A stretch of 37,795 bases of DNA. Source: Thermodesulfovibrionales bacterium. Its GTDB lineage: Bacteria > Nitrospirota > Thermodesulfovibrionia > Thermodesulfovibrionales > UBA6898. The notes below the pieces were generated by a model. The model saw only the letters and a list, made by a program, of their open reading frames with translations, searched no databases and had not been told where the DNA came from. Each line of letters starts with the position of its first letter. The first letter of the stretch is position 1. The translations under genes and the position numbers were made by a program. Positions 1,761 to 14,380 of this stretch are shown in pieces. Where the stretch lies: assembly GCA_044450345.1 (NCBI GenBank), contig JBIOIY010000030.1:1-37795 (forward strand), in the 5' to 3' direction.

Positions 1761-2129
1761 TTATATCGCAATCTTTACTTGCATTTCGTCATAGGCACTT
1801 CGAGGAGCAGTTTTATTATCATATCGTTTTCGCTCGATCAATCCTATTTGCTCTAAGAAAATAATATCATCAGAGACATTTTTTATATCTCGATTCAGCA
1901 GTTTTGCAAGTTCATGAAGCGAAGAAGGTTTTTCCTCTCTAATGGTATGAAGCAATTGCATTCGTTTAGGAGTGATCGCTCTGCGAAAAGCCTCTAAAGA
2001 CGCAAAGTAAACACCTGTTTCTCTTTGGATTTTCTGGCCATTCTTGATAGACTCGGCAGTACTAACGAAATCTGCAAGAGCTTCATCGACACTTCGAATC
2101 TGTATCCTAATGATCTTCTTTGCTCTCAT
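1761..2129 (-). CDS. HVO_A0114-like HTH DNA-binding protein (putative antitoxin)
   Basis: F.SLEAFRRAITPKRMQLL..I....PSSLHELAKLLNRDIKNVSDD..FLEQIGLI winged-HTH pattern; 4-nt overlap with the upstream gene. Confidence 0.75.
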   Translation of the reverse strand: MRAKKIIRIQIRSVDEALADFVSTAESIKNGQKIQRETGVYFASLEAFRRAITPKRMQLLHTIREEKPSSLHELAKLLNRDIKNVSDDIIFLEQIGLIERKRYDNKTAPRSAYDEMQVKIAI

Positions 2130-2981: not shown

Positions 2982-3971
2982 TTATTTTGCGACATGGACT
3001 ATTGCTACTTTATTTTTGCCGCTGCACGCCAGATAGAGTTCTCCTTCCGGGGTCGCCACCATATTTCGGACCACACCGCCTCCGGAGGGAATCGGCCGGC
3101 TTGAAAATGATGCGGTTTTCGGATCGAATCTCACAATCGTATTGGGAGTGACGCCCGATTCGCTGTACCAGACAATACCATCAGCAGTTATCGCTATAGC
3201 ATAAGGTCTGGAACCCCGGCCGCCAGGTGAGGGCCATTCCTCTGCTTTGCCGTCTAACGGGCTGAGACGACCCAATTTCCCACTTGAGTAATCGGTGTAA
3301 TAAATAATGTCGTCGGCTGCTATTGCCAGACGTCTTGGCCGGGCGTCCTTGGGAAGGGGATATTCCTTGATACGCATAGTGTCCGGATCGATGCTCGCAA
3401 GTTTATTGGCGCCGAGCTCACAAAAAAACGGGATGCCTTTTGAATTGACCGCGATCCCATAGGGCCGGGCATCCGGTGTGGGTAACGGTTTGACATTAAT
3501 GTCTCCTGTCGTGGGATCCAACCGCCCTACCATGTTGCCCGTCTGCACGGTAAACCAAAGAATGCCTTTCCGGTCAAAGACGGGAGTGTGCGGGTCATGT
3601 GCTGCTTCCGGGAGTTTATATTCAGTGATCTTACCGGTTGTCGGATTGAGCTGGCCGATATAACCCTTGAAATTGGCAGTAAACCAGATATCCCCCTCTT
3701 TATCTGCCACGAGCCCGTGAGGGCCCGAGCCGGCGGTCTTCAACGGATATTCCTTTATTTCGTCTGTTTTTGGATTTAGCTCGCCGATGGTATTCGACCC
3801 CATGCCTGTATACCACAGCGAGCCGTCAGGTCCCAGAGCCGGATCATGAGGGAAGGAATTCGGCGTAGGGAGGGTCCATTCTTTAATAGTGATCGAAACC
3901 GGATCGGCGGCAAACAGTGCAACCGGTATCGCAATAAGAATAAGTATGTTCAAAAGAGATTTGTATCTCAT
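2982..3971 (-). CDS. Secreted Vgb (virginiamycin B lyase)-like beta-propeller protein
   Basis: Repeated P(H/Y)G(L/I)...DG.IW(F/Y)T....IG.LNP.TG.I.EY.LP blades. Signal-peptide-like N-terminus MRYKSLLNILILIAIPVALFAA after GGGGG at ATG 3971. Confidence 0.8.
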   Translation of the reverse strand: MRYKSLLNILILIAIPVALFAADPVSITIKEWTLPTPNSFPHDPALGPDGSLWYTGMGSNTIGELNPKTDEIKEYPLKTAGSGPHGLVADKEGDIWFTANFKGYIGQLNPTTGKITEYKLPEAAHDPHTPVFDRKGILWFTVQTGNMVGRLDPTTGDINVKPLPTPDARPYGIAVNSKGIPFFCELGANKLASIDPDTMRIKEYPLPKDARPRRLAIAADDIIYYTDYSSGKLGRLSPLDGKAEEWPSPGGRGSRPYAIAITADGIVWYSESGVTPNTIVRFDPKTASFSSRPIPSGGGVVRNMVATPEGELYLACSGKNKVAIVHVAK

Positions 3972-4013
3972 CTTATTACCCCCGAAGAAGTTATATCGTC
4001 CGGCTATAATTGA

Positions 4014-4042
4014 AGTATACAATGGCCGGAGAGGGCTGACAA
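4014..4042 (-). promoter_or_regulatory. Sigma70 promoter of the vgb-like gene
   Basis: Minus strand TTGTCA(4042-4037)-17 nt-TATACT(4019-4014). Confidence 0.55.
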
Positions 4043-4100
4043 GGCCGCTCAGTTCGCTCCGCGAGTCGGTGGACGTCAAGGCCGATCGCTTCGTCGTCGC

Positions 4101-4253
4101 TTGACTTCCATGGTGAGTCATGACTACCCTAAAGAAAAAGTGCCGCAAGTCATAACAGAGACCCCGGTGCGGTGATATATCCCTGCGGAGGAGATGAAGT
4201 TGAAGGTTAACCGGAAGCAATCCTTAAGGCCTTTTTGCCCTGGAGATTTTTTT
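4101..4253 (+). promoter_or_regulatory. Weak promoter plus a degenerate, internally deleted cobalamin-riboswitch leader upstream of bzaC
   Basis: TTGACT-18-TACCCT (4101-4130). 4140-4172 matches 8747-8779 at 25/33 nt. 4188-4253 resembles the expression platform/terminator at 8974-9037. Confidence 0.6.
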
Positions 4254-4297
4254 ATAAGAGTCGTTATCCCAGATATATTCTTTTCGGGCTGCCGGTC

Positions 4298-5851
4298 ATG
4301 AACCATGTCCCCTTTACCGGCCGGGACCCTCAGGATGCGGGACCTCAGTATCTCGAAGACCTCGCCACCGGCTACTGGTTCTCTCTTTCGCTCTTTACGG
4401 CGGTGGAGGCGGGTCTTTTCGGTCTCCTTGAGCCTGCGGGAAAAACTTTGGATGAGATCTCTTCCGCACTCGGCTTCACACGCGAAGGGACGGACAGATT
4501 CTTACATGTCCTCTGTTCCATGGGATTATTAGTCTGCGATGGTCCGCACTATTTCAATTCCAGAATTTCCAGTGATTATCTCATTGCCGGGAAAGATAAT
4601 TACCAGGGTGATGCGGTCCTCTGGAGAAAAGACCTGATTGCGCAATGGTCCGGCATCAAGGATTGTCTCGAGGTCGGCGGGAGGATTGTGAAGGGCTCCG
4701 GACAAGAAGACCCGGCGGTACTGTTTCAACGGAGGCGGAAATATATCCGCGCTATGGATTGCACGGCGAAGACAAAAGTGAGAGAGATGTTTCCGCTCTT
4801 TGAAGGCTGTTCCCTCGGGGGCGAGATGCTCGATGTCGGGGCCGGGTCCGGTGCAGTGGCCGCAGGGTTCCTCGATCGTTTCCCGTCGCTCAATGCCACC
4901 CTCCTCGACATCCCCGAGATACTCGAACATACGAGGGATTTTATTCGTGAGAGGGGACTTTGCAAGAGGACTGATTTCTGCGCGGCCAATGTCCTCGATC
5001 CGTGGCCCGTCGAAAAAGGGCGTTTCGACTTTATCATGCTTTCGAATATCATTCATGCCTATTCGGAAAAGGAACTCCTCCATATCCTGGCCGAAGCCGT
5101 ACGGTGTCTGAAGGAAGATGGGCTTCTCATGATTCACGATTTCTTTTTCGAACACTTCCCTGAAAAAGCGGCGCTCTTCGATCTGAACATGTTCATCAAC
5201 ACCTATAACGGAAGGGTTTTTTCGGAACGCGACGTGAGAGAAAAATTGGCCCTCATGAACCTCCATGTGACCGGCCTTCTGCCGCTCGGAACCGACACCG
5301 CCCTGATCATCGCATCGAAAAAAGCCGAGGCCCTTACGCAACTACATATTGATAAAAAGGCGCAACTGAGCGCAAAGATCAGGGCCCTCGGGTTCCGGGA
5401 CCTTTTTATCATCCCCGTCGATACGATCCATATCCCCGGCTGGACGGATATGCGATGCCGATTCGGATGCGGCCATTTCGGGAAACCGAATTGCCCTCCC
5501 CATGCGCCTTCTCCTGGGAAGACCCGGGACTTCATAAAAGATTATGCATTTGCGCTTCTCCTTGAAGGAGAGCCGCCCACTAAAGATTTCCAGGCGCGGA
5601 TACTTCAGGCCGAACGGGAGGCCTTTAATGCCGGATTTTATAAGGCCTTCTCATATTGGGCCGGTCCCTGTTCGCTTTGTCCTTCCTGCGCGGAGGACGG
5701 CATATGCCGTAACACTAAAGATGCCCGCCCTTCGATGGAAGGGGCTGGAATAGATGTCTTTGAGACCGCCAAACGCGCCGGCAGCACGCTCAGGACACTG
5801 GACAAAAAAGACGATTTTGTAAAATATTTCGGCCTGATTCTCCTGGAGTAG
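4298..5851 (+). CDS. bzaC: SAM-dependent O-methyltransferase with C-terminal DUF2284, BzaC-like (5-hydroxybenzimidazole ribotide methylase)
   Basis: Dimerisation helix region, MLDVGAGSG SAM motif, Cys-rich C-terminus (CRFGC...NCPP; GPCSLCPSC; RPSMEGAGIDV). Lies next to two B12 radical SAM genes and a ThiC paralogue in a cob cluster. Confidence 0.8.
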   Translation: MNHVPFTGRDPQDAGPQYLEDLATGYWFSLSLFTAVEAGLFGLLEPAGKTLDEISSALGFTREGTDRFLHVLCSMGLLVCDGPHYFNSRISSDYLIAGKDNYQGDAVLWRKDLIAQWSGIKDCLEVGGRIVKGSGQEDPAVLFQRRRKYIRAMDCTAKTKVREMFPLFEGCSLGGEMLDVGAGSGAVAAGFLDRFPSLNATLLDIPEILEHTRDFIRERGLCKRTDFCAANVLDPWPVEKGRFDFIMLSNIIHAYSEKELLHILAEAVRCLKEDGLLMIHDFFFEHFPEKAALFDLNMFINTYNGRVFSERDVREKLALMNLHVTGLLPLGTDTALIIASKKAEALTQLHIDKKAQLSAKIRALGFRDLFIIPVDTIHIPGWTDMRCRFGCGHFGKPNCPPHAPSPGKTRDFIKDYAFALLLEGEPPTKDFQARILQAEREAFNAGFYKAFSYWAGPCSLCPSCAEDGICRNTKDARPSMEGAGIDVFETAKRAGSTLRTLDKKDDFVKYFGLILLE

Positions 5852-5856
5852 GTGAT

Positions 5857-7179
5857 ATGCGCATCCTCATGGTACAGACACAATCGGTAGAAGGGGCCTC
5901 ATCGGAAAGGGTCTATCCCCTCGGTATCGTATTGCTCGGAGGACTGCTCAAGACGGAAGGACATGAGGTCTCGGTTCTGGACATGAATCTTTCCTCCGAT
6001 CCGTTCCTGGAGCTGAAAGAACGGCTCCTGGATTTTCATCCCGATGTTGTCGGCCTCTCGTTGCGGAACATCGACCCCCTGGGGAACAAAAGCACGTCTC
6101 TCGTGCCCCCTTTCGTCGCTACCGCCCGCCTCGTTTCCTCACTGGCGCCGGATGCGTCCATTATCGCAGGCGGAACAGGTTTTTCGCTCTTTCCTGAAAG
6201 GCTCATGAAGGAGGTCCCGGAGATCCGATACGGGTTCGTCGGCGAGGCCGAAGAGGCCCTCCCCATGCTGATCGCATCACTCCAAAATCCGCCGCGGCTG
6301 AAGGGCCTCTGTTACAGGAAGGATGGTAATATTAAGACGGTTCCCCCTTCGCGGGATTTTGATATGACCGCGTATAGTGTCCCCGACAGGAGACTCCTCG
6401 ACCCTTCATCCTATGCCGATATCAATGCGTACGTCCCGGCCATCGGGATCGAGGGCAAGCGCGGATGTCCTTTCACATGCTCCTATTGCGTATACCCGAA
6501 GCTCCAGGGAAGAAGACTGAGATGCAGACCGCCCGTTGCTATTGTGGACGAGATGGAAGCCCTCCACAAAGAATACGGTATCGGAGGTTTTCATTTCACG
6601 GACCCTGTGCTGAATATCCCTCAGGGCCATCTCGAAGAGGTATGCCTTGAGATACTGCGAAGGAAGCTGAAGGTGAGATGGGACGGATTTTTGAGGGAAA
6701 ATCTTCTGGATGAGAGAAACGTCGTCCTCTTCGAAAAGGCGGGCTGCGAATGCTTCTCCTTCTCCCCTGACGGCCTCTGCAGTCAGTCTCTTCAGGTGCT
6801 GGGGAAAAGGATGAAAGAATCCGATATCCTGAAGGCCGCCGCGCTTGCTGCAAGGACGGACGTGCTCAGCGTGTATCATTTCATGGTGAACGTCCCGGGC
6901 GAAAATGAAGAGACCTGCAAGAGGGGCATAAGTCTTCTCGAACGTCTCTATGAACTCCACGACAGGAAGAGGAACCTCGGCACGATCGTCCTGAACAATA
7001 TCCGCATCCTTCCCGGTACACCGATCGAAGAACGGGCGAGGGAGGAAGGAATCTTGAGGCCCGGGACTGACCTCCTTTATCCGACCTATTATAATCCGCC
7101 GCCCTTCGATACACTTCGGTACCGGCTCGAGACGCTCCATTTCTGCAAGAACGTTTTCTTATGGCAGGAGATACAATGA
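5857..7179 (+). CDS. bzaD: B12-binding radical SAM enzyme, BzaD-like
   Basis: N-terminal B12-binding region (YPLG...GHEV...DMN...PDVVGLSLRNID) and KRGCPFTCSYC CxxxCxxC motif; position after bzaC. Confidence 0.72.
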   Translation: MRILMVQTQSVEGASSERVYPLGIVLLGGLLKTEGHEVSVLDMNLSSDPFLELKERLLDFHPDVVGLSLRNIDPLGNKSTSLVPPFVATARLVSSLAPDASIIAGGTGFSLFPERLMKEVPEIRYGFVGEAEEALPMLIASLQNPPRLKGLCYRKDGNIKTVPPSRDFDMTAYSVPDRRLLDPSSYADINAYVPAIGIEGKRGCPFTCSYCVYPKLQGRRLRCRPPVAIVDEMEALHKEYGIGGFHFTDPVLNIPQGHLEEVCLEILRRKLKVRWDGFLRENLLDERNVVLFEKAGCECFSFSPDGLCSQSLQVLGKRMKESDILKAAALAARTDVLSVYHFMVNVPGENEETCKRGISLLERLYELHDRKRNLGTIVLNNIRILPGTPIEERAREEGILRPGTDLLYPTYYNPPPFDTLRYRLETLHFCKNVFLWQEIQ

Positions 7180-8687
7180 AGGTCCTTCTACTCGAACACC
7201 CGAGGGACATAACACCAGAGAGATGCAACGACATCGCGAATACGCCGCTCTCTTCATGTCTTCTGTCCGGGTATGCGGCCGGAATGTTGAAACGGGACGG
7301 ACACGATGTGGAGATAATCGAAGGCTATCTCGACAGGCTTTCGTATGAGGACATAGGGAACAATATCAGCTCGATGAAACCGGATCTTCTCGGCGTTCAT
7401 ATGGTCTACCATTGGCAGCGCGACCATGCCCTTTTCGATTTTCTCGAAAGGGTGAAGGGTGATTTTTCTCCTTACATCGCTGCGTATGGTTTTTATCCCA
7501 CTATCGCATATAAAGATATTTTGGGACAATGCAAGGCCGTCGACTCGGTCGTCCTCGGGGAACCGGAATCGCCCTTTTCGTGTCTTGCCGGTTCCTCCCT
7601 GACGGGCGGGCATATCCCCCGCATCCCGGGTCTCGCGCTGAGAGACGGATCGGGATATTTCACCGTTACAAAACCGGAGCCGATAGAAGACCTAGACAGT
7701 ATCCCCTTCCCGGTCCGCACAGACGCGTTGCTCCGGCTTCCCGAAGTGAACATCCTCGGAAGCCGCGGCTGTTATGGAAAATGTACCTTTTGCTACATCA
7801 ACACCTTCTTCAGCCGCGGGACTTCATGGCGAAGGAGGGGTCCGGAGAACATCATGGAGGAGATCGACGGCCTCATTTCCCGGACGGGACTGAGGGATTT
7901 CTATTTTACCGATCCGAATTTTTTCGGATCCGGCAGAACCGGACAGGAGAGGGCATTGCGCATCGCTTCCCTCATAAAACAAAGGGGCATCAGGTTCGGC
8001 ATCGAAGCCCGCGTCAACGACATCCATGACGAGACGATCGCTGCACTCGTCAAGGCCGGTCTCCGCCATATTCTCATCGGCATCGAGAGCGGCAGGGACG
8101 CGTCCCTCCGGCGCATGAACAAAATGACGACGGTCGCACAGAACGAGCGGGCGATCAGGGTTCTCAGGAAACACGGGGTGGAACCGAACGTGGGATTCAT
8201 CATGTTCGAGCCCGATTCCACCCTGGAGGACATCAGGACCAATTTCGAATTCCTGAGGAGGAACGACCTCCTCAGGAACCTCTCTGTTACCGCGAATGTG
8301 CTCTATCACCACCAGATCATCCTCGAGGGGACCGATGCGTATCGTGCCCTCAAGAAGGAGGGGCGGCTTGTGACGGGACAGGCTGCTTACGAGGGCACAA
8401 CCTATTTTAAGGTTCCCGAGGTCGCTTCTCTGGCCGACATCATGCGCCGGATCACTAATACCCTCTTTTCATGCATGGACGGTATCTGGTCAGGACATAT
8501 GATCGGGCCCCCCGGGGCAGGGGCAGGATATGAAAAGGTGAACCAGCTCCTCGTTAAGGCCTTCGAGAGTAGTCTTGAGGCCCTTGAATCGGGTGAAAAG
8601 TTTACTGAGGACCGTGCGTCTTCCAGAGTCTGCAAAACAGAAAAAGAGATGCTTGAAATTGTAAAACTTGATGTATATAAATTCTGA
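7176..8687 (+). CDS. bzaE: B12-binding radical SAM enzyme, BzaE-like
   Basis: SRGCYGKCTFC motif and N-terminal B12-binding-like domain. ATGA overlap with bzaD and AGGAG RBS; third gene of the C-D-E order. Confidence 0.68.
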   Translation: MKVLLLEHPRDITPERCNDIANTPLSSCLLSGYAAGMLKRDGHDVEIIEGYLDRLSYEDIGNNISSMKPDLLGVHMVYHWQRDHALFDFLERVKGDFSPYIAAYGFYPTIAYKDILGQCKAVDSVVLGEPESPFSCLAGSSLTGGHIPRIPGLALRDGSGYFTVTKPEPIEDLDSIPFPVRTDALLRLPEVNILGSRGCYGKCTFCYINTFFSRGTSWRRRGPENIMEEIDGLISRTGLRDFYFTDPNFFGSGRTGQERALRIASLIKQRGIRFGIEARVNDIHDETIAALVKAGLRHILIGIESGRDASLRRMNKMTTVAQNERAIRVLRKHGVEPNVGFIMFEPDSTLEDIRTNFEFLRRNDLLRNLSVTANVLYHHQIILEGTDAYRALKKEGRLVTGQAAYEGTTYFKVPEVASLADIMRRITNTLFSCMDGIWSGHMIGPPGAGAGYEKVNQLLVKAFESSLEALESGEKFTEDRASSRVCKTEKEMLEIVKLDVYKF

Positions 8688-8703
8688 TAACCAGGACTAC
8701 AAG

Positions 8704-8732
8704 TTGACAGGGAATTTTCTAAATGCTATAAA
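8704..8732 (+). promoter_or_regulatory. Strong sigma70 promoter of the cob operon
   Basis: TTGACA(8704-8709)-17 nt-TATAAA(8727-8732) with extended -10 TG. Confidence 0.8.
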
Positions 8733-8740
8733 AAAGTATA

Positions 8741-8928
8741 CTTCAGGTGCCGCGAGGCATAAAAGGGAATCCCGTGAGGGCCATCAGACCCAAGCCGGGA
8801 GCGGTCCCGCCGCTGTAATCCCGATTCCGGAGGATTTCCGGAATAAACGTCTCTGTCTGTAAAGGGCCACTGTTCTTCGAATGGGAAGGCCGGCAGAGAT
8901 CGGGAGAGCCAGAAGACCTGCCTGAGAG
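8741..8928 (+). ncRNA. Cobalamin riboswitch
   Basis: Conserved elements in order: AGGTGC..., AAAAGGGAATCCCGTG, GCGGTCCCGCCGCTGTAA, GCCACTG...TGGGAAGGC, B12 box GAGCCAGAAGACCTGCCTG. Upstream of a cob operon. Confidence 0.95.
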
Positions 8929-8996
8929 GTGGTCCGTATTGTACGTATGCGGACATTTCCCGTGTGAGGAAAAGAGGATGAAGTGAACCAGGGTGC

Positions 8997-9041
8997 AATC
9001 CTCAGGTCCCTTTTTCAAGGGGTCTGAGGATTTTTTATTTT
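8997..9041 (+). terminator. Intrinsic terminator of the riboswitch expression platform
   Basis: AATCCTCAG-GTCCCTT / AAGGGGT-CTGAGGATT stem running into a T-tract (9031-9041), directly before the AAGGAGG RBS. Confidence 0.8.
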
Positions 9042-9054
9042 AAGGAGGTAACAC

Positions 9055-10356
9055 ATGACACAGTTGGAAAGAGCTGCAAAGGGCGATTTGACGGAGGAGA
9101 TCAAAGCGGTGGCCGCAAGTGAAGGTTTGTCAGCGGACTTGGTCAGGGAGCGTGTGGCGGCCGGGCAGATCGTGATCCCTGACAACAGAAACAGGAAGAA
9201 GAACGTCGTCGGCATAGGCAAGGGCCTGCGGACGAAGGTAAACGCCTCGATCGGGTCTTCGACGGATATCGCCGATATCGCGATGGAGGTCGAAAAGGCG
9301 AAGATCGCCGAAAAGTACGGCGCCGACACCTTGATGGACCTGAGCGTGGGAGGAGACATACCGGGGATAAGAAAATCAGTCATGGATGCGATCGGCCTTC
9401 CCGTCGGCACCGTGCCGCTTTATGAGGCCTTCGCGCTTGCGATCGAGAAATACGGCGCCGCCGTGAATATGCCGGCGGAACTGCTCTTCGAGATCACCGA
9501 AAAGCAGTGTCAGGAGGGGGTCGGGTTCATGGCGATCCACTGCGGAATAAACAGGAAGACGGTCGAGATGCTGAGGAAGCAGCACTACCGTTATGGCGGG
9601 CTCGTTTCAAAAGGCGGCTCTTATATGGTCGCATGGATGGAGCATAATAACAAGGAGAACCCGCTCTACGAACACTTCGACAGGGTCGCCGCGATCATGA
9701 AAAAATACGATGCCGTCCTCAGTCTCGGAAACGGCTTCAGGGCGGGCGCGATCCATGACGCGTCGGACAGGGTCCAGATACAGGAGCTCCTCATAAACTG
9801 CGAACTCGCCGAACTGGGAAGGGAGATGGGTTGCCAGACGATGGTGGAAGGTCCGGGCCATATCCCGATCAACGAGATAGAAGCGAATATCATCATGGAA
9901 AAGAAGATGAGCGGCGAATCTCCTTTTTACATGCTCGGGCCGATCACGACCGATATCGCGCCCGGATACGACCATATCACCGCCGCTATCGGCGCCGCAC
10001 TCTCCTCTTCCTACGGGGCCGATTTTATCTGTTATGTGACTCCTTCGGAACACCTCGGCCTGCCCTTCCCTGAAGACGTGAGGGAGGGCGTAATCGCATC
10101 GAGGATCGCGGCACATGTCGGCGACATGATCAAGCATAAAAACATGCATGCCGACAAGACGATGTCGAAGGCGCGGCGCGATATGAAATGGGACAAGCAG
10201 TTCACTACGGCAATCGATCCGGAAAGGGCAAGGGAGATAAAGGCCAGGAGGGGCAACGGCGATGAGCATTCCTGCACCATGTGCGGAAAGTTTTGCGCCA
10301 ACGATATCCTCCGCGGCATGTTCGAGGCCGACATGAAGGGAACGGACAAGAAGTAA
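9055..10356 (+). CDS. bzaF: 5-hydroxybenzimidazole synthase BzaF (ThiC paralogue)
   Basis: ThiC fold (LRTKVNASIG, EGPGH, GYDHIT, C-terminal CTMCGKFC), but GGLVSKGG and LSLGNG replace ThiC-type SRGG/LGDG. Single copy, under a B12 riboswitch, fused in an operon with cobU/T/S. Confidence 0.85.
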   Translation: MTQLERAAKGDLTEEIKAVAASEGLSADLVRERVAAGQIVIPDNRNRKKNVVGIGKGLRTKVNASIGSSTDIADIAMEVEKAKIAEKYGADTLMDLSVGGDIPGIRKSVMDAIGLPVGTVPLYEAFALAIEKYGAAVNMPAELLFEITEKQCQEGVGFMAIHCGINRKTVEMLRKQHYRYGGLVSKGGSYMVAWMEHNNKENPLYEHFDRVAAIMKKYDAVLSLGNGFRAGAIHDASDRVQIQELLINCELAELGREMGCQTMVEGPGHIPINEIEANIIMEKKMSGESPFYMLGPITTDIAPGYDHITAAIGAALSSSYGADFICYVTPSEHLGLPFPEDVREGVIASRIAAHVGDMIKHKNMHADKTMSKARRDMKWDKQFTTAIDPERAREIKARRGNGDEHSCTMCGKFCANDILRGMFEADMKGTDKK

Positions 10357-12811: not shown

Positions 12812-14380
12812 ATGGCTAAGGCAATGATGATTCAGGGAACCGGCTCCGGTGCCGGCAAAAGCCTTATCGCCGCGGCATTTTGCCGGATATTCCGGAATAT
12901 GGGGCTGAAAGTGGCGCCCTTCAAGTCGCAGAATATGGCCCTCAATTCCTACATAACCATCGAAGGCGGAGAGATAGGAAGGGCCCAGGCGCTCCAGGCA
13001 GAGGCCGCCGGGATAGAACCTTCCGTTGACATGAACCCGGTGCTCCTCAAGGCATCGGGCGAAATGGGTTCGCAGGTGGTCCTTCAGGGCAAGGTCCATT
13101 CCATGATGAAGGCACACGAGTATTACGCATTCAGGAAAGAGGCATGGGAAGTGGTGAGAAAATCCTATGCAAGGCTCTCGCGGAAATACGACATGATCGT
13201 AATCGAAGGCGCCGGAAGCCCCGCTGAAATAAATCTTATGGACGTGGACATCGTGAATATGTCTGTCGCAAGGCATGCGAAGGCCCCCGTGCTTCTCGTC
13301 GGTGATATCGATAAGGGAGGGGTGTTCGCATCGCTTTACGGCACCGTAAAGCTCCTTGGAAGGGACAGCAGATATATAAAGGCCTTCGTGATAAACAAGT
13401 TCAGGGGTGACATCGGGATACTCAGGCCCGGCCTCGAAATGATCCGGGAGAAGACCGGCATACCGGTCATCGGGGTGCTTCCCTTTGTACAGGACCTGGG
13501 ACTGCCCGAAGAAGACGGCATGGCCCTTTCTCAGAACGTAAAGTACAGGAGGCAATCCGGCTCGGGTGAGGTGAGGATCGTTGTTGTGCGGCTGAAATAC
13601 ATATCGAACTTCACAGACTTCGATCCTTTTTACCACGAGCCTGATGTGGAGATCCTGTTTTCGACCCATGCCTCGGATATCGAGAATGCCGATCTCGTGA
13701 TCGTTCCCGGCACAAAGAATACGGTAAAAGACCTCCTGCTCCTGAAGGAAACCGGACTCGACAGCTGCATAAGGGAAGCCCATAAAAAAGGCGTTATGGT
13801 AATGGGCATGTGCGGAGGCTATCAGATGCTCGGCAGAAAGATTTACGACCCCCATGGAGTCGAGAGCGATCTCGGCGAGATCGAAGGCATAGGCCTCCTC
13901 GACATCGAGACCACCTTCGGTAATGAAAAGAGGACCTGCAGGGTCGAGGCGGAGTTAACGGGGATTGGGGACTGGGGACCGGGGATTAGCAGGGGTAATA
14001 CTAACCCCCGTGCCCTGACCCCTGATACCACTATTAAAGGCTATGAGATACACATGGGCGACAGCTCAGGAGATATCGGTTTGTTCAGAGTGAGAAGAAT
14101 ATCAACTGACTCCTGTAAGGGCGGGGTTACCCCGCCCCTGCAAACCACCTTGGACGGTTCGCAAAAAGGCAACTGCTGGGGCACGTATTTACATGGGCTT
14201 TTCGATAACGACCTTTTCAGGAGGGACCTCATTAATGTCCTGAGGATACGGAAGGGCCTGTCGCCGCTTAGTGCGTGCTGCTGTTATTCCGACGTCAAGG
14301 AGAAAGCGATAGATCGTCTGGCCGACGTTATCAGGGAGAATACTGACATGGATTTCATCAGGGAGATGCTCGGTTTATGA
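12812..14380 (+). CDS. cobQ: Cobyric acid synthase CobQ/CbiP
   Basis: QGTGSGAGKS, PFKSQNMALNS, EGAGSPAEINL, ISNFTDFD, GMCGGYQMLG, GTYLHG. Confidence 0.97.
   Translation: MAKAMMIQGTGSGAGKSLIAAAFCRIFRNMGLKVAPFKSQNMALNSYITIEGGEIGRAQALQAEAAGIEPSVDMNPVLLKASGEMGSQVVLQGKVHSMMKAHEYYAFRKEAWEVVRKSYARLSRKYDMIVIEGAGSPAEINLMDVDIVNMSVARHAKAPVLLVGDIDKGGVFASLYGTVKLLGRDSRYIKAFVINKFRGDIGILRPGLEMIREKTGIPVIGVLPFVQDLGLPEEDGMALSQNVKYRRQSGSGEVRIVVVRLKYISNFTDFDPFYHEPDVEILFSTHASDIENADLVIVPGTKNTVKDLLLLKETGLDSCIREAHKKGVMVMGMCGGYQMLGRKIYDPHGVESDLGEIEGIGLLDIETTFGNEKRTCRVEAELTGIGDWGPGISRGNTNPRALTPDTTIKGYEIHMGDSSGDIGLFRVRRISTDSCKGGVTPPLQTTLDGSQKGNCWGTYLHGLFDNDLFRRDLINVLRIRKGLSPLSACCCYSDVKEKAIDRLADVIRENTDMDFIREMLGL
13960..14029. 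repeat. Inverted heptamer array inside cobQ
   Basis: GGGGATT-GGGGACT-GGGGACC-GGGGATT followed by a degenerate complementary arm (CTAACCCC...TGACCCC); encodes GIGDWGPGISRGNTNPRALTPD. Confidence 0.65.
14114..14142. repeat. REP-like palindrome inside cobQ
   Basis: TGTAA-GGGCGGGG-TTA-CCCCGCCC-CTGCA. Confidence 0.65.

Follow-up and report, generated by a model that had tools for sequence, protein, structure and literature searches.

A probable relic of a cobalamin riboswitch in the leader of bzaCDE from a Thermodesulfovibrionales bacterium

The cobamide genes bzaC, bzaD and bzaE of a Thermodesulfovibrionales bacterium are followed by a complete cobalamin riboswitch that heads the next gene, bzaF, and the DNA in front of bzaC carries pieces that resemble that same riboswitch. 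Was bzaCDE once governed by a switch of its own, and, if so, what became of it? The stretch of DNA analysed here, called the window, comprises 37,795 nucleotides (nt) of contig JBIOIY010000030.1 (assembly GCA_044450345.1), and the region in question is the 326-nt intergenic region, 3972-4297, between bzaC and a divergent gene. A reading of the letters without database searches (the sequence-only reading) had proposed that bzaCDE formerly possessed a cobalamin riboswitch whose aptamer was lost. Intact leaders in relatives, the likeness of the relic to them and the lack of any aptamer match all favour this proposal. With a probability of roughly 85%, positions 4140-4253 are a riboswitch pseudogene: what is left, after decay, of a full cobalamin riboswitch leader that once stood before bzaCDE.

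A probably truncated and decayed leader upstream of bzaC

The coordinates and letters that the sequence-only reading gave for the relic and for the intact riboswitch are all correct. The 5' piece, 4140-4172, agrees with 8747-8779 of the intact copy at 25 of 33 positions without gaps. Dinucleotide shuffles give a mean of 18.0 and a maximum of 24, so that none of 2000 reaches the observed value, and the pairing is the best 33-nt diagonal between 4095-4187 and 8700-8946. The platform-like 3' piece is real as well: Smith-Waterman alignment of 4095-4300 with 8700-9055 scores 34, compared with 17.9±2.2 for shuffled sequences (maximum 28; 0/1000 reach the score). This local alignment spans 4167-4236 and 8947-9015 and runs through TGCGG (4168/8948), GATGAAG, GCAATCC and the T-rich terminator loop; the likeness to the platform extends over 4174-4253. 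At 45-158 nt before the ATG of bzaC (4298), the relic occupies the sense-strand 5' leader of a cobamide gene, the location of a cobalamin riboswitch.

A blastn comparison of the whole intergenic region with the masked 37.8-kb window, both strands included (75.6 kb of search space), returned as its best two matches 8952-9014 (E 6.4e-4) and 8747-8779 (E 0.091) at scores of +1/-1, collinear and on the same strand. Each piece is modest alone; jointly and in order they make a convincing sequence match. A chance resemblance of two leaders of mixed AT and GC content, or an artefact of assembly, is scarcely credible. The pieces are short, and stricter scoring (+2/-3) puts both at ranks 4 and 5 with E 0.42 each. 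Set against this are three shuffle tests (0/1000, 0/2000 and 0/1000), the collinear top two places in 75.6 kb under the softer scoring, the matches of other genomes' leaders described below, and a contig from another study's run that is collinear over 3440-4449 with 48 differences and one gap. As the same arrangement occurs in that contig, the relic is no assembly artefact, and the shuffle, leader and contig controls together effectively refute this rival. Related strains from other metagenomes carry extra DNA just 5' of the relic: in one contig from run X1 an insert of 1298 letters separates 4093 from 4094, and contigs of runs X1 and X6 diverge at 4049 and rejoin at 4055.

The predicted loss of the aptamer was borne out with Infernal. 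A cmscan search of 3900-4400 yielded no match at E≤10 (the gathering score of RF00174, the cobalamin riboswitch family, is 31.5 bits). R1, a covariance model built from seven intact riboswitches of this Nitrospirota group, gives the relic 5.1 bits with filters off (4126-4204, 126 model positions skipped) and the intact copy 167.9; a reverse-strand match reaches 4.8 bits, which places the relic's value at noise level. The aptamer core and B12 box, together with the 3' strand of P1, are absent between 4172 and the stretch 4173-4199 with the junction and the remnant of the small platform hairpin. No GCCACTG, the B12 box, is read in 4101-4297, and the 5' strand of P1 (8740-8746 in the intact copy) has no counterpart before 4140; in the R1 alignment of the relic the P1 pairs are flagged as non-standard. 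The stub has 23 positions at which the seven intact copies never vary, and it departs from them at 5; two of these changes fall in the GGGAA motif, present in 7/7 intact copies and replaced by GAGAC in the relic. The conservation of these motifs is observed in the copies; B12 box and GGGAA core are their customary names.

The terminator has decayed as well, as had been claimed. Its hairpin is worth -5.5 kcal/mol, compared with -20.0 in the intact copy and -10.7 to -18.0 in eleven other leaders, a set that excludes the leader of locus L067, which has no anchor motif. In spite of the T run, the terminator scan makes no call at the relic, and the relic terminator is missing from the minimum-free-energy structure of 4101-4300; for this 200-nt region the fold has a z of +0.84, with 158/200 shuffles folding as well or better. 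A live but divergent riboswitch at this site was considered and is ruled out by the Rfam scan at E≤10 together with the unfiltered R1 search. On this evidence the relic appears to be a descendant of the RF00174 family and not a member of it. The features of the locus are collected in Table 1.

Table 1. Coordinates of the relic, the intact riboswitch and the adjoining genes in the window
Feature	Position	Strand	Details
Divergent gene, secreted beta-propeller, Vgb-lyase family	2982..3971	-	Pfam PF24684, 191 bits; N-terminal hydrophobic stretch
Promoter-like site of the propeller gene	4042->4014	-	TTGTCA-17-TATACT
Aptamer stub	4140..4172	+	5' small GNRA-capped hairpin, joining region, start of next helix
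Junction and remnant of small platform hairpin	4173..4199	+	Ends in GATGAAG, 4193-4199
Degenerate platform motif	4200..4223	+	Ends in GCAATCC, 4217-4223; extra letters compared with relatives (alignment A3)
Decayed intrinsic terminator	4220..4253	+	Two stem mismatches; -5.5 kcal/mol; seven-T run 4247-4253
Promoter-like site	4251..4279	+	TTTATA-17-TATATT; behind the relic T run, 19 nt before the bzaC ATG
bzaC, intact	4298..5851	+	O-methyltransferase fused to DUF2284
bzaD, intact, B12-binding radical SAM	5857..7179	+	TIGR04385, 673.4 bits (cut-off 450)
bzaE-like, intact, B12-binding radical-SAM protein	7161..8687	+	Domain content and position; no equivalog model matched
Promoter of the intact riboswitch	8704..8732	+	TTGACA, 17 nt, TATAAA
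Intact cobalamin riboswitch aptamer, RF00174	8728..8939	+	83.4 bits, E 2.7e-19
Expression platform of the intact riboswitch	8952..9036	+	16-bp terminator 8997-9032, -20.0 kcal/mol; T run
bzaF-type ThiC homologue	9055..10356	+	Heads a co-directional cobamide gene run, identified out to 27743

Intact, shortened and vanished switches in relatives

Inspection of the bzaC leaders of related genomes, which the sequence-only reading had called for, revealed intact RF00174 switches directly upstream of the gene, often with a second one after bzaE. Eighty bzaC loci from the genome collection (loci are numbered L, genomes G) were gathered with the BzaC alignment A1, a single BzaC protein as query having found no relative, and were searched with R1; the closest belong to Nitrospirota/Thermodesulfovibrionales. 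At 10 of the 80, all Nitrospirota, the nearest upstream riboswitch ends 112-199 nt before the bzaC match; seven of these have another after bzaE and share the window's bzaCDE-riboswitch-bzaF layout. The nearest upstream switch is 1.4-1.7 kb from the bzaC match at four loci and 2.5-5.1 kb away at 42, mostly in Bacillota. No riboswitch occurs upstream of bzaC in the available sequence of the other 24, 12 of which have less than 4 kb of upstream sequence; four of them (L038, L044, L065 and L069) have a riboswitch only after bzaE, as in the window. Two genomes of the window's own family carry the two-riboswitch arrangement: G024, with an intact RF00174 match of 114 bits directly before bzaC and a second of 107 bits after bzaE, and G065.

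The relic region 4095-4300 was aligned to 18 intact leaders, 10 from the bzaC side and eight from the bzaF side, with 200 shuffles each. For 16 of the 18 no shuffle reaches the relic score; at L063 one does, and at L067, where there is no similarity, 49 do. The relic fits the bzaC leader of L072 best (score 40.9, z 11.3), and L072 positions 5689-5720 are identical to the aptamer stub at 25 of 32. The L092 leader comes next (z 9.6), its terminator region alone matching at 12/13 plus 22/25, and the window's own bzaF leader scores 34.4 (z 7.0). Over a nine-leader panel the relic has a median z of 7.0, compared with medians of -0.2 to 0.3 for three unrelated 250-nt stretches of the window. In alignment A3 the relic follows the common plan of small hairpin, GATGAAG...GCAATCC, terminator and T run, and deviates at conserved letters. 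Homology is thus indicated by collinear likeness to both ends of the leader above the controls and by the same genomic position. With an RF00174 switch of the terminator-platform type the relic shares its place in the 5' leader of a cobamide operon, the first 33 aptamer nt, a recognisable platform and the T run, arranged in the order seen at 8728-9036 and in the relatives' bzaC leaders; it differs from such a switch in having no ligand-binding core, B12 box, P1 or covariance match, and in its weak terminator.

Two properties of the platforms deserve mention in their own right. The stretch from GATGAAG to GCAATCC (A3 columns ~45-75; window 8975-9003 and seven leaders) is conserved in sequence across genera, much more strongly than the terminator stem that follows. 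GAGGAT and ATCCTC, at the two ends of the stretch, are complementary and overlap the 5' arm of the terminator, and the stretch may be an antiterminator or an aptamer docking loop. At L042, L064, L069 (~5985-6000) and L053 (~1245-1258) the bzaC start codon lies a few nt after the terminator T run, and the G-rich 3' arm of the terminator is the only Shine-Dalgarno-like sequence, an overlap that suggests combined transcriptional and translational control. The window has 44 extra nt between the T run and the bzaC ATG.

A different origin for the stub and platform is improbable, namely that they are a partial copy and that no full switch ever preceded bzaC in this lineage. Such a copy could have come from the bzaF leader 4.6 kb downstream, through patchy gene conversion or illegitimate recombination, or a leader truncated beforehand could have entered the lineage together with bzaCDE. 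The notion draws strength from five of the seven two-riboswitch genomes, whose copies are 89-98% identical and group by genome and not by position, so that sequence exchange between the two leaders is common. It also draws on the patchy occurrence of bzaCDE, full-length BzaC orthologues being found in 7/54 family genomes and BzaF (E≤1e-200) in 16/54, 14 of them at ≥84% identity, and on BzaF itself, which is closer to that of G019, of another genus (92% identity), than to that of G003 (84%), the sole same-genus genome with BzaF; this suggests a mobile locus. However, the relic fits the bzaC leaders of L072 and L092 at least as well as it fits the window's own bzaF leader. Moreover, the sister locus L038 keeps a different part of the leader, the promoter, and two deletions are easier to envisage than two partial copies.

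The BzaC tree gives a direction to the change. It contains 68 rows, 14 rows shorter than 450 amino acids (counted in-frame from the match start) having been excluded and the window and G014 added, and it places the window as sister to L038 of G019 (support of 83 in the Shimodaira-Hasegawa-like approximate likelihood ratio test; BzaC 68% and BzaF 92% identical). Before bzaC, L038 has a 32-nt block that is identical at 27 of 32 positions to the window's riboswitch promoter and ends 10 nt before the ATG; in 1000 shuffles the maximum is 22 and none reaches 27. Its bzaC leader holds neither aptamer nor platform, the riboswitch promoter being the only part kept. Window and L038 keep complementary parts, and a fuller leader would therefore predate their split; the complementary relics are most simply explained by such a fuller ancestral leader and separate later deletions. 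The heptamer TGCGGAC, which follows the L038 promoter and occurs at 8948-8954 in the window, was considered as a shared deletion junction and set aside, since at 7 nt it is indistinguishable from chance.

Aptamers were also lost, separately, in the lineages of L044 and L069. L044 is sister, with a support of 100, to the riboswitch-bearing L042; it has no aptamer, and its promoter nearly abuts the platform loop and terminator. L069 belongs to a clade (support 94) with the riboswitch-bearing L064 and has neither aptamer nor stub; its platform of ~90 nt, roughly 90% identical to that of L064 in an alignment read by eye, comes after the stop codon of a phosphatase-like gene in the same orientation. 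The breakpoints of both differ from that of the window. Their leaders belong to the same family as the relic, with the aptamer lost and the platform kept; they differ in that only the window retains an aptamer piece and only the window's terminator has decayed, those of L044 and L069 remaining strong at -17.9 and -16.6 kcal/mol. At both loci a co-oriented gene ends just upstream of the leader, whereas the window has a divergent gene. The three cases are suggestive of a terminator that persists where it ends an upstream transcript and drifts otherwise. At L044 (~5905-6000) a promoter, TTGACA-19 nt-TATAGT, is followed within ~15 nt by an intact 11-bp terminator and T run before bzaC, an odd arrangement unless the terminator serves a small upstream open reading frame or read-through is regulated. 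Two further leaders, L053 (best z 4.4) and L090 (4.1), are marginal and were not counted as relics.

The perfectly paired terminators of the aptamer-less platforms of L044 and L069, which show that a platform can persist by itself, and the conservation of the GATGAAG-GCAATCC sequence across leaders, which hints at a role beyond pairing, lend something to the view that the window's leader is still functional in minimal form: its hairpins could act in attenuation, or bind a protein or a trans-acting RNA, and so tune bzaCDE without direct B12 binding. This is nonetheless very improbable. In the window the conserved motif is degenerate, the terminator is weak and the fold is no better than that of shuffles. 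Related strains show ~9 substitutions and one indel in 4162-4291, a density like that of the adjacent coding sequence (37 differences in 986 nt), and the L044 and L069 terminators are explicable as ordinary terminators of co-oriented upstream genes, whereas the window's neighbour is divergent.

Several observations weigh against descent from a complete leader. The next relative, L065, has no relic (best z 2.0, median 0.0), and BzaC orthologues are absent from all seven other genomes of the genus. No intact bzaC riboswitch was found within the sub-branch of the window, L038 and L065, and the ancestral state is therefore read from distant kin and from the complementary relics. To the stricter blastn ranking given above is added the comparison of 4095-4139 with the riboswitch promoter region, which is not significant, 335/1000 shuffles reaching the score. 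The sequence-only reading had also envisaged a single 173-nt deletion across a microhomology. The repeated letters are there, TGCGG at 4168-4172 and 8948-8952 and TGAGG at 8775-8779, but the junction depends on the alignment: small intermediate blocks are placed differently against the window's bzaF leader, L072 and L092. As its placement varies and the comparison copy is a paralogue, a single microhomology deletion is unproven.

A proposed history and the probable present control of bzaCDE

The riboswitch pseudogene could have formed as follows. The ancestral bzaCDE leader would have consisted of promoter, aptamer and antiterminator/terminator platform, as in related Thermodesulfovibrionales-type genomes. 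One or more deletions would then have taken the closing strand of P1 along with the ligand-binding core and B12 box, leaving a 33-nt 5' stub fused to the platform. Deprived of its aptamer, and lacking a co-oriented upstream gene whose transcript it could terminate, the platform would have drifted until the terminator lacked two stem pairs and the old promoter geometry was lost.

A weak TTGAC-type promoter had been suggested for the relic, and this part of the sequence-only reading is not supported: TTGACT at 4101-4106 has no -10 element at 16-18 nt, the nearest -10-like letters being 23 nt away, and the promoter scan makes no call there. From TTGACT to GTGCCGC the spacing is 39 nt in the relic leader, compared with 43 nt in the intact one. 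Survival of the old riboswitch promoter before bzaC is ruled out by the consensus scan and by the shuffle result for 4095-4139. A candidate for the present bzaC promoter is the site at 4251-4279, which agrees with the consensus at 9 of 12 positions; the scan found two sites where 0.3 were expected. If this is the promoter in use, the relic would not even be transcribed. Differences between related strains spare the hexamers of the site, a pattern of few sites that is not significant by a rough estimate and was left unused. Contigs from RNA library X20, with 90-99% likeness and from a related strain, cover parts of bzaC, bzaD and bzaE and come near the intact riboswitch; none lies over 3000-4564, and such contigs can neither show starts nor prove transcription.

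The labels of the bza genes agree with those first proposed: BzaD matches TIGR04385 at 673 bits, BzaD and BzaE have B12-binding and radical-SAM domains, and BzaC is an O-methyltransferase-DUF2284 fusion. The intact riboswitch at 8728 is the sole RF00174 match in the 3.19-Mb assembly, which is 91% complete. Behind bzaF the plus strand continues with cobU, cobT, cobS, cobQ, cbiB, cobD, cbiA, cbiX/C and cbiMQO, and the cobamide run goes on through cobA, cbiD, cbiET, cbiL, cbiF and cbiGH, identified to 27743. A second ThiC, 46% identical to the window copy, is encoded on contig C18 of G000 (12853-14106, minus strand), ~1.7 kb downstream of a thiamine pyrophosphate (TPP) riboswitch on the same strand (C18:15769-15877, minus strand). 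The C18 gene is the housekeeping thiamine gene, and because this second ThiC lies downstream of the TPP riboswitch, the ThiC-like gene behind the cobalamin riboswitch is assigned to the BzaF type. Farther upstream in the window are an open reading frame of 398 amino acids (238-1434), whose match to the NucS C-terminal domain is weak (E 3e-7, well short of the cut-off), and a small HVO_A0114/MarR-like regulator (1761-2129, minus strand); both seem unrelated to the relic.

From this arrangement it may be inferred that bzaCDE is now transcribed without cis-acting control by B12, perhaps from 4251-4279, and that bzaF and the cobamide genes behind it probably remain under the sole intact riboswitch. 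BzaF makes the first benzimidazole, so that B12 would still halt the flux, and the chief effect of the uncoupling would be that any 5-hydroxybenzimidazole made is fully methylated. Gene-to-product relations of the bza genes are set out in passages of PMC8123684.

Paired riboswitches, related operons and significance

Riboswitches that flank bzaCDE form direct repeats 4.4 kb apart. Near-identical pairs occur at L072 (5672-5862 and 10471-10661), L076 (386-576 and 5174-5365) and L067 (929-1112 and 4549-4732), and also at L042 and L064; such pairs point to concerted evolution or repeated duplication, to judge from their sequences. A speculative and rather doubtful extension is that in this Nitrospirota group bzaCDE is a recombination cassette bracketed by two near-identical riboswitches, and that relics and aptamer-less leaders mark loci at which the upstream repeat was destroyed. 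Exchange between the repeats would keep the leaders alike and could loop bzaCDE out or integrate it at riboswitch-bzaF junctions. Consistent with this idea, bzaCDE is patchy within genera, G003 has a riboswitch before bzaF, 96% identical to the bzaC-side copy of L072, and no bzaC orthologue, and the window's BzaF is nearer to that of another genus than to that of G003. Were the idea true, such looping out and integration would explain why bzaCDE is present in only about half of the BzaF-bearing family genomes, and loss of a repeat, as in the window, L038, L044 and L069, would lock the cassette and free the dimethylbenzimidazole-tailoring genes from B12 feedback.

The bza locus has a history at odds with taxonomy. 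G003 has a short-type riboswitch like that of G024, and the window has one of the long-insert type. Between the riboswitch terminator T run and bzaF, G003 further harbours a group II intron without an open reading frame (L122, G003:C12:14000-32000, minus strand, ~8240-9000), with matches to RF02001 (129 bits), RF01998 (62 bits) and RF00029 (43 bits). Insertion just after an intrinsic terminator is a habit of class C introns.

The 42 loci with a switch 2.5-5.1 kb upstream, judged by spacing, fit a single switch that heads a longer operon, in agreement with operon orders given in passages of PMC8123684. The same enzymes take part there and here, namely BzaC, BzaD, BzaE and a BzaF/BzaAB-type synthase. 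In contrast with such single-switch operons, bzaCDE in the window and in related Nitrospirota forms its own unit upstream of riboswitch-bzaF-cobU-cobT-cobS, and the ancestral bzaCDE here would have had its own riboswitch, with two switches 4.4 kb apart. The literature listings searched, together with passages of PMC6461909 and PMC8123684, describe no such riboswitch relic, the one paper that turned up on riboswitch remnants or loss being an unrelated study of yeast, and work that joins bzaC, bzaD and bzaE with a riboswitch consists, to judge from the listing, of reviews and surveys only.

Catalogues of riboswitches usually record presence or absence, and to our knowledge clear remnants have rarely been described. 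The feature reported here is a decayed derivative of a known riboswitch, of value for the comparative series to which it belongs and not for any new mechanism. At one orthologous site the loci form a graded series, from an intact switch through a deleted aptamer with a retained terminator, and a stub with a decayed terminator, to a promoter only; from it one can read how a cis-regulatory RNA is taken apart and which of its pieces are kept for other reasons. There is also a warning for annotation: covariance-model scans miss relics, and a downstream gene would be wrongly scored as never having been under riboswitch control. For the organisms themselves the prediction is that in some anaerobes the steps from 5-hydroxybenzimidazole to dimethylbenzimidazole would escape switch-off by B12 and the committed BzaF step would not, an uncoupling that matters for any attempt to predict the cobamide made by a community member when B12 is plentiful.

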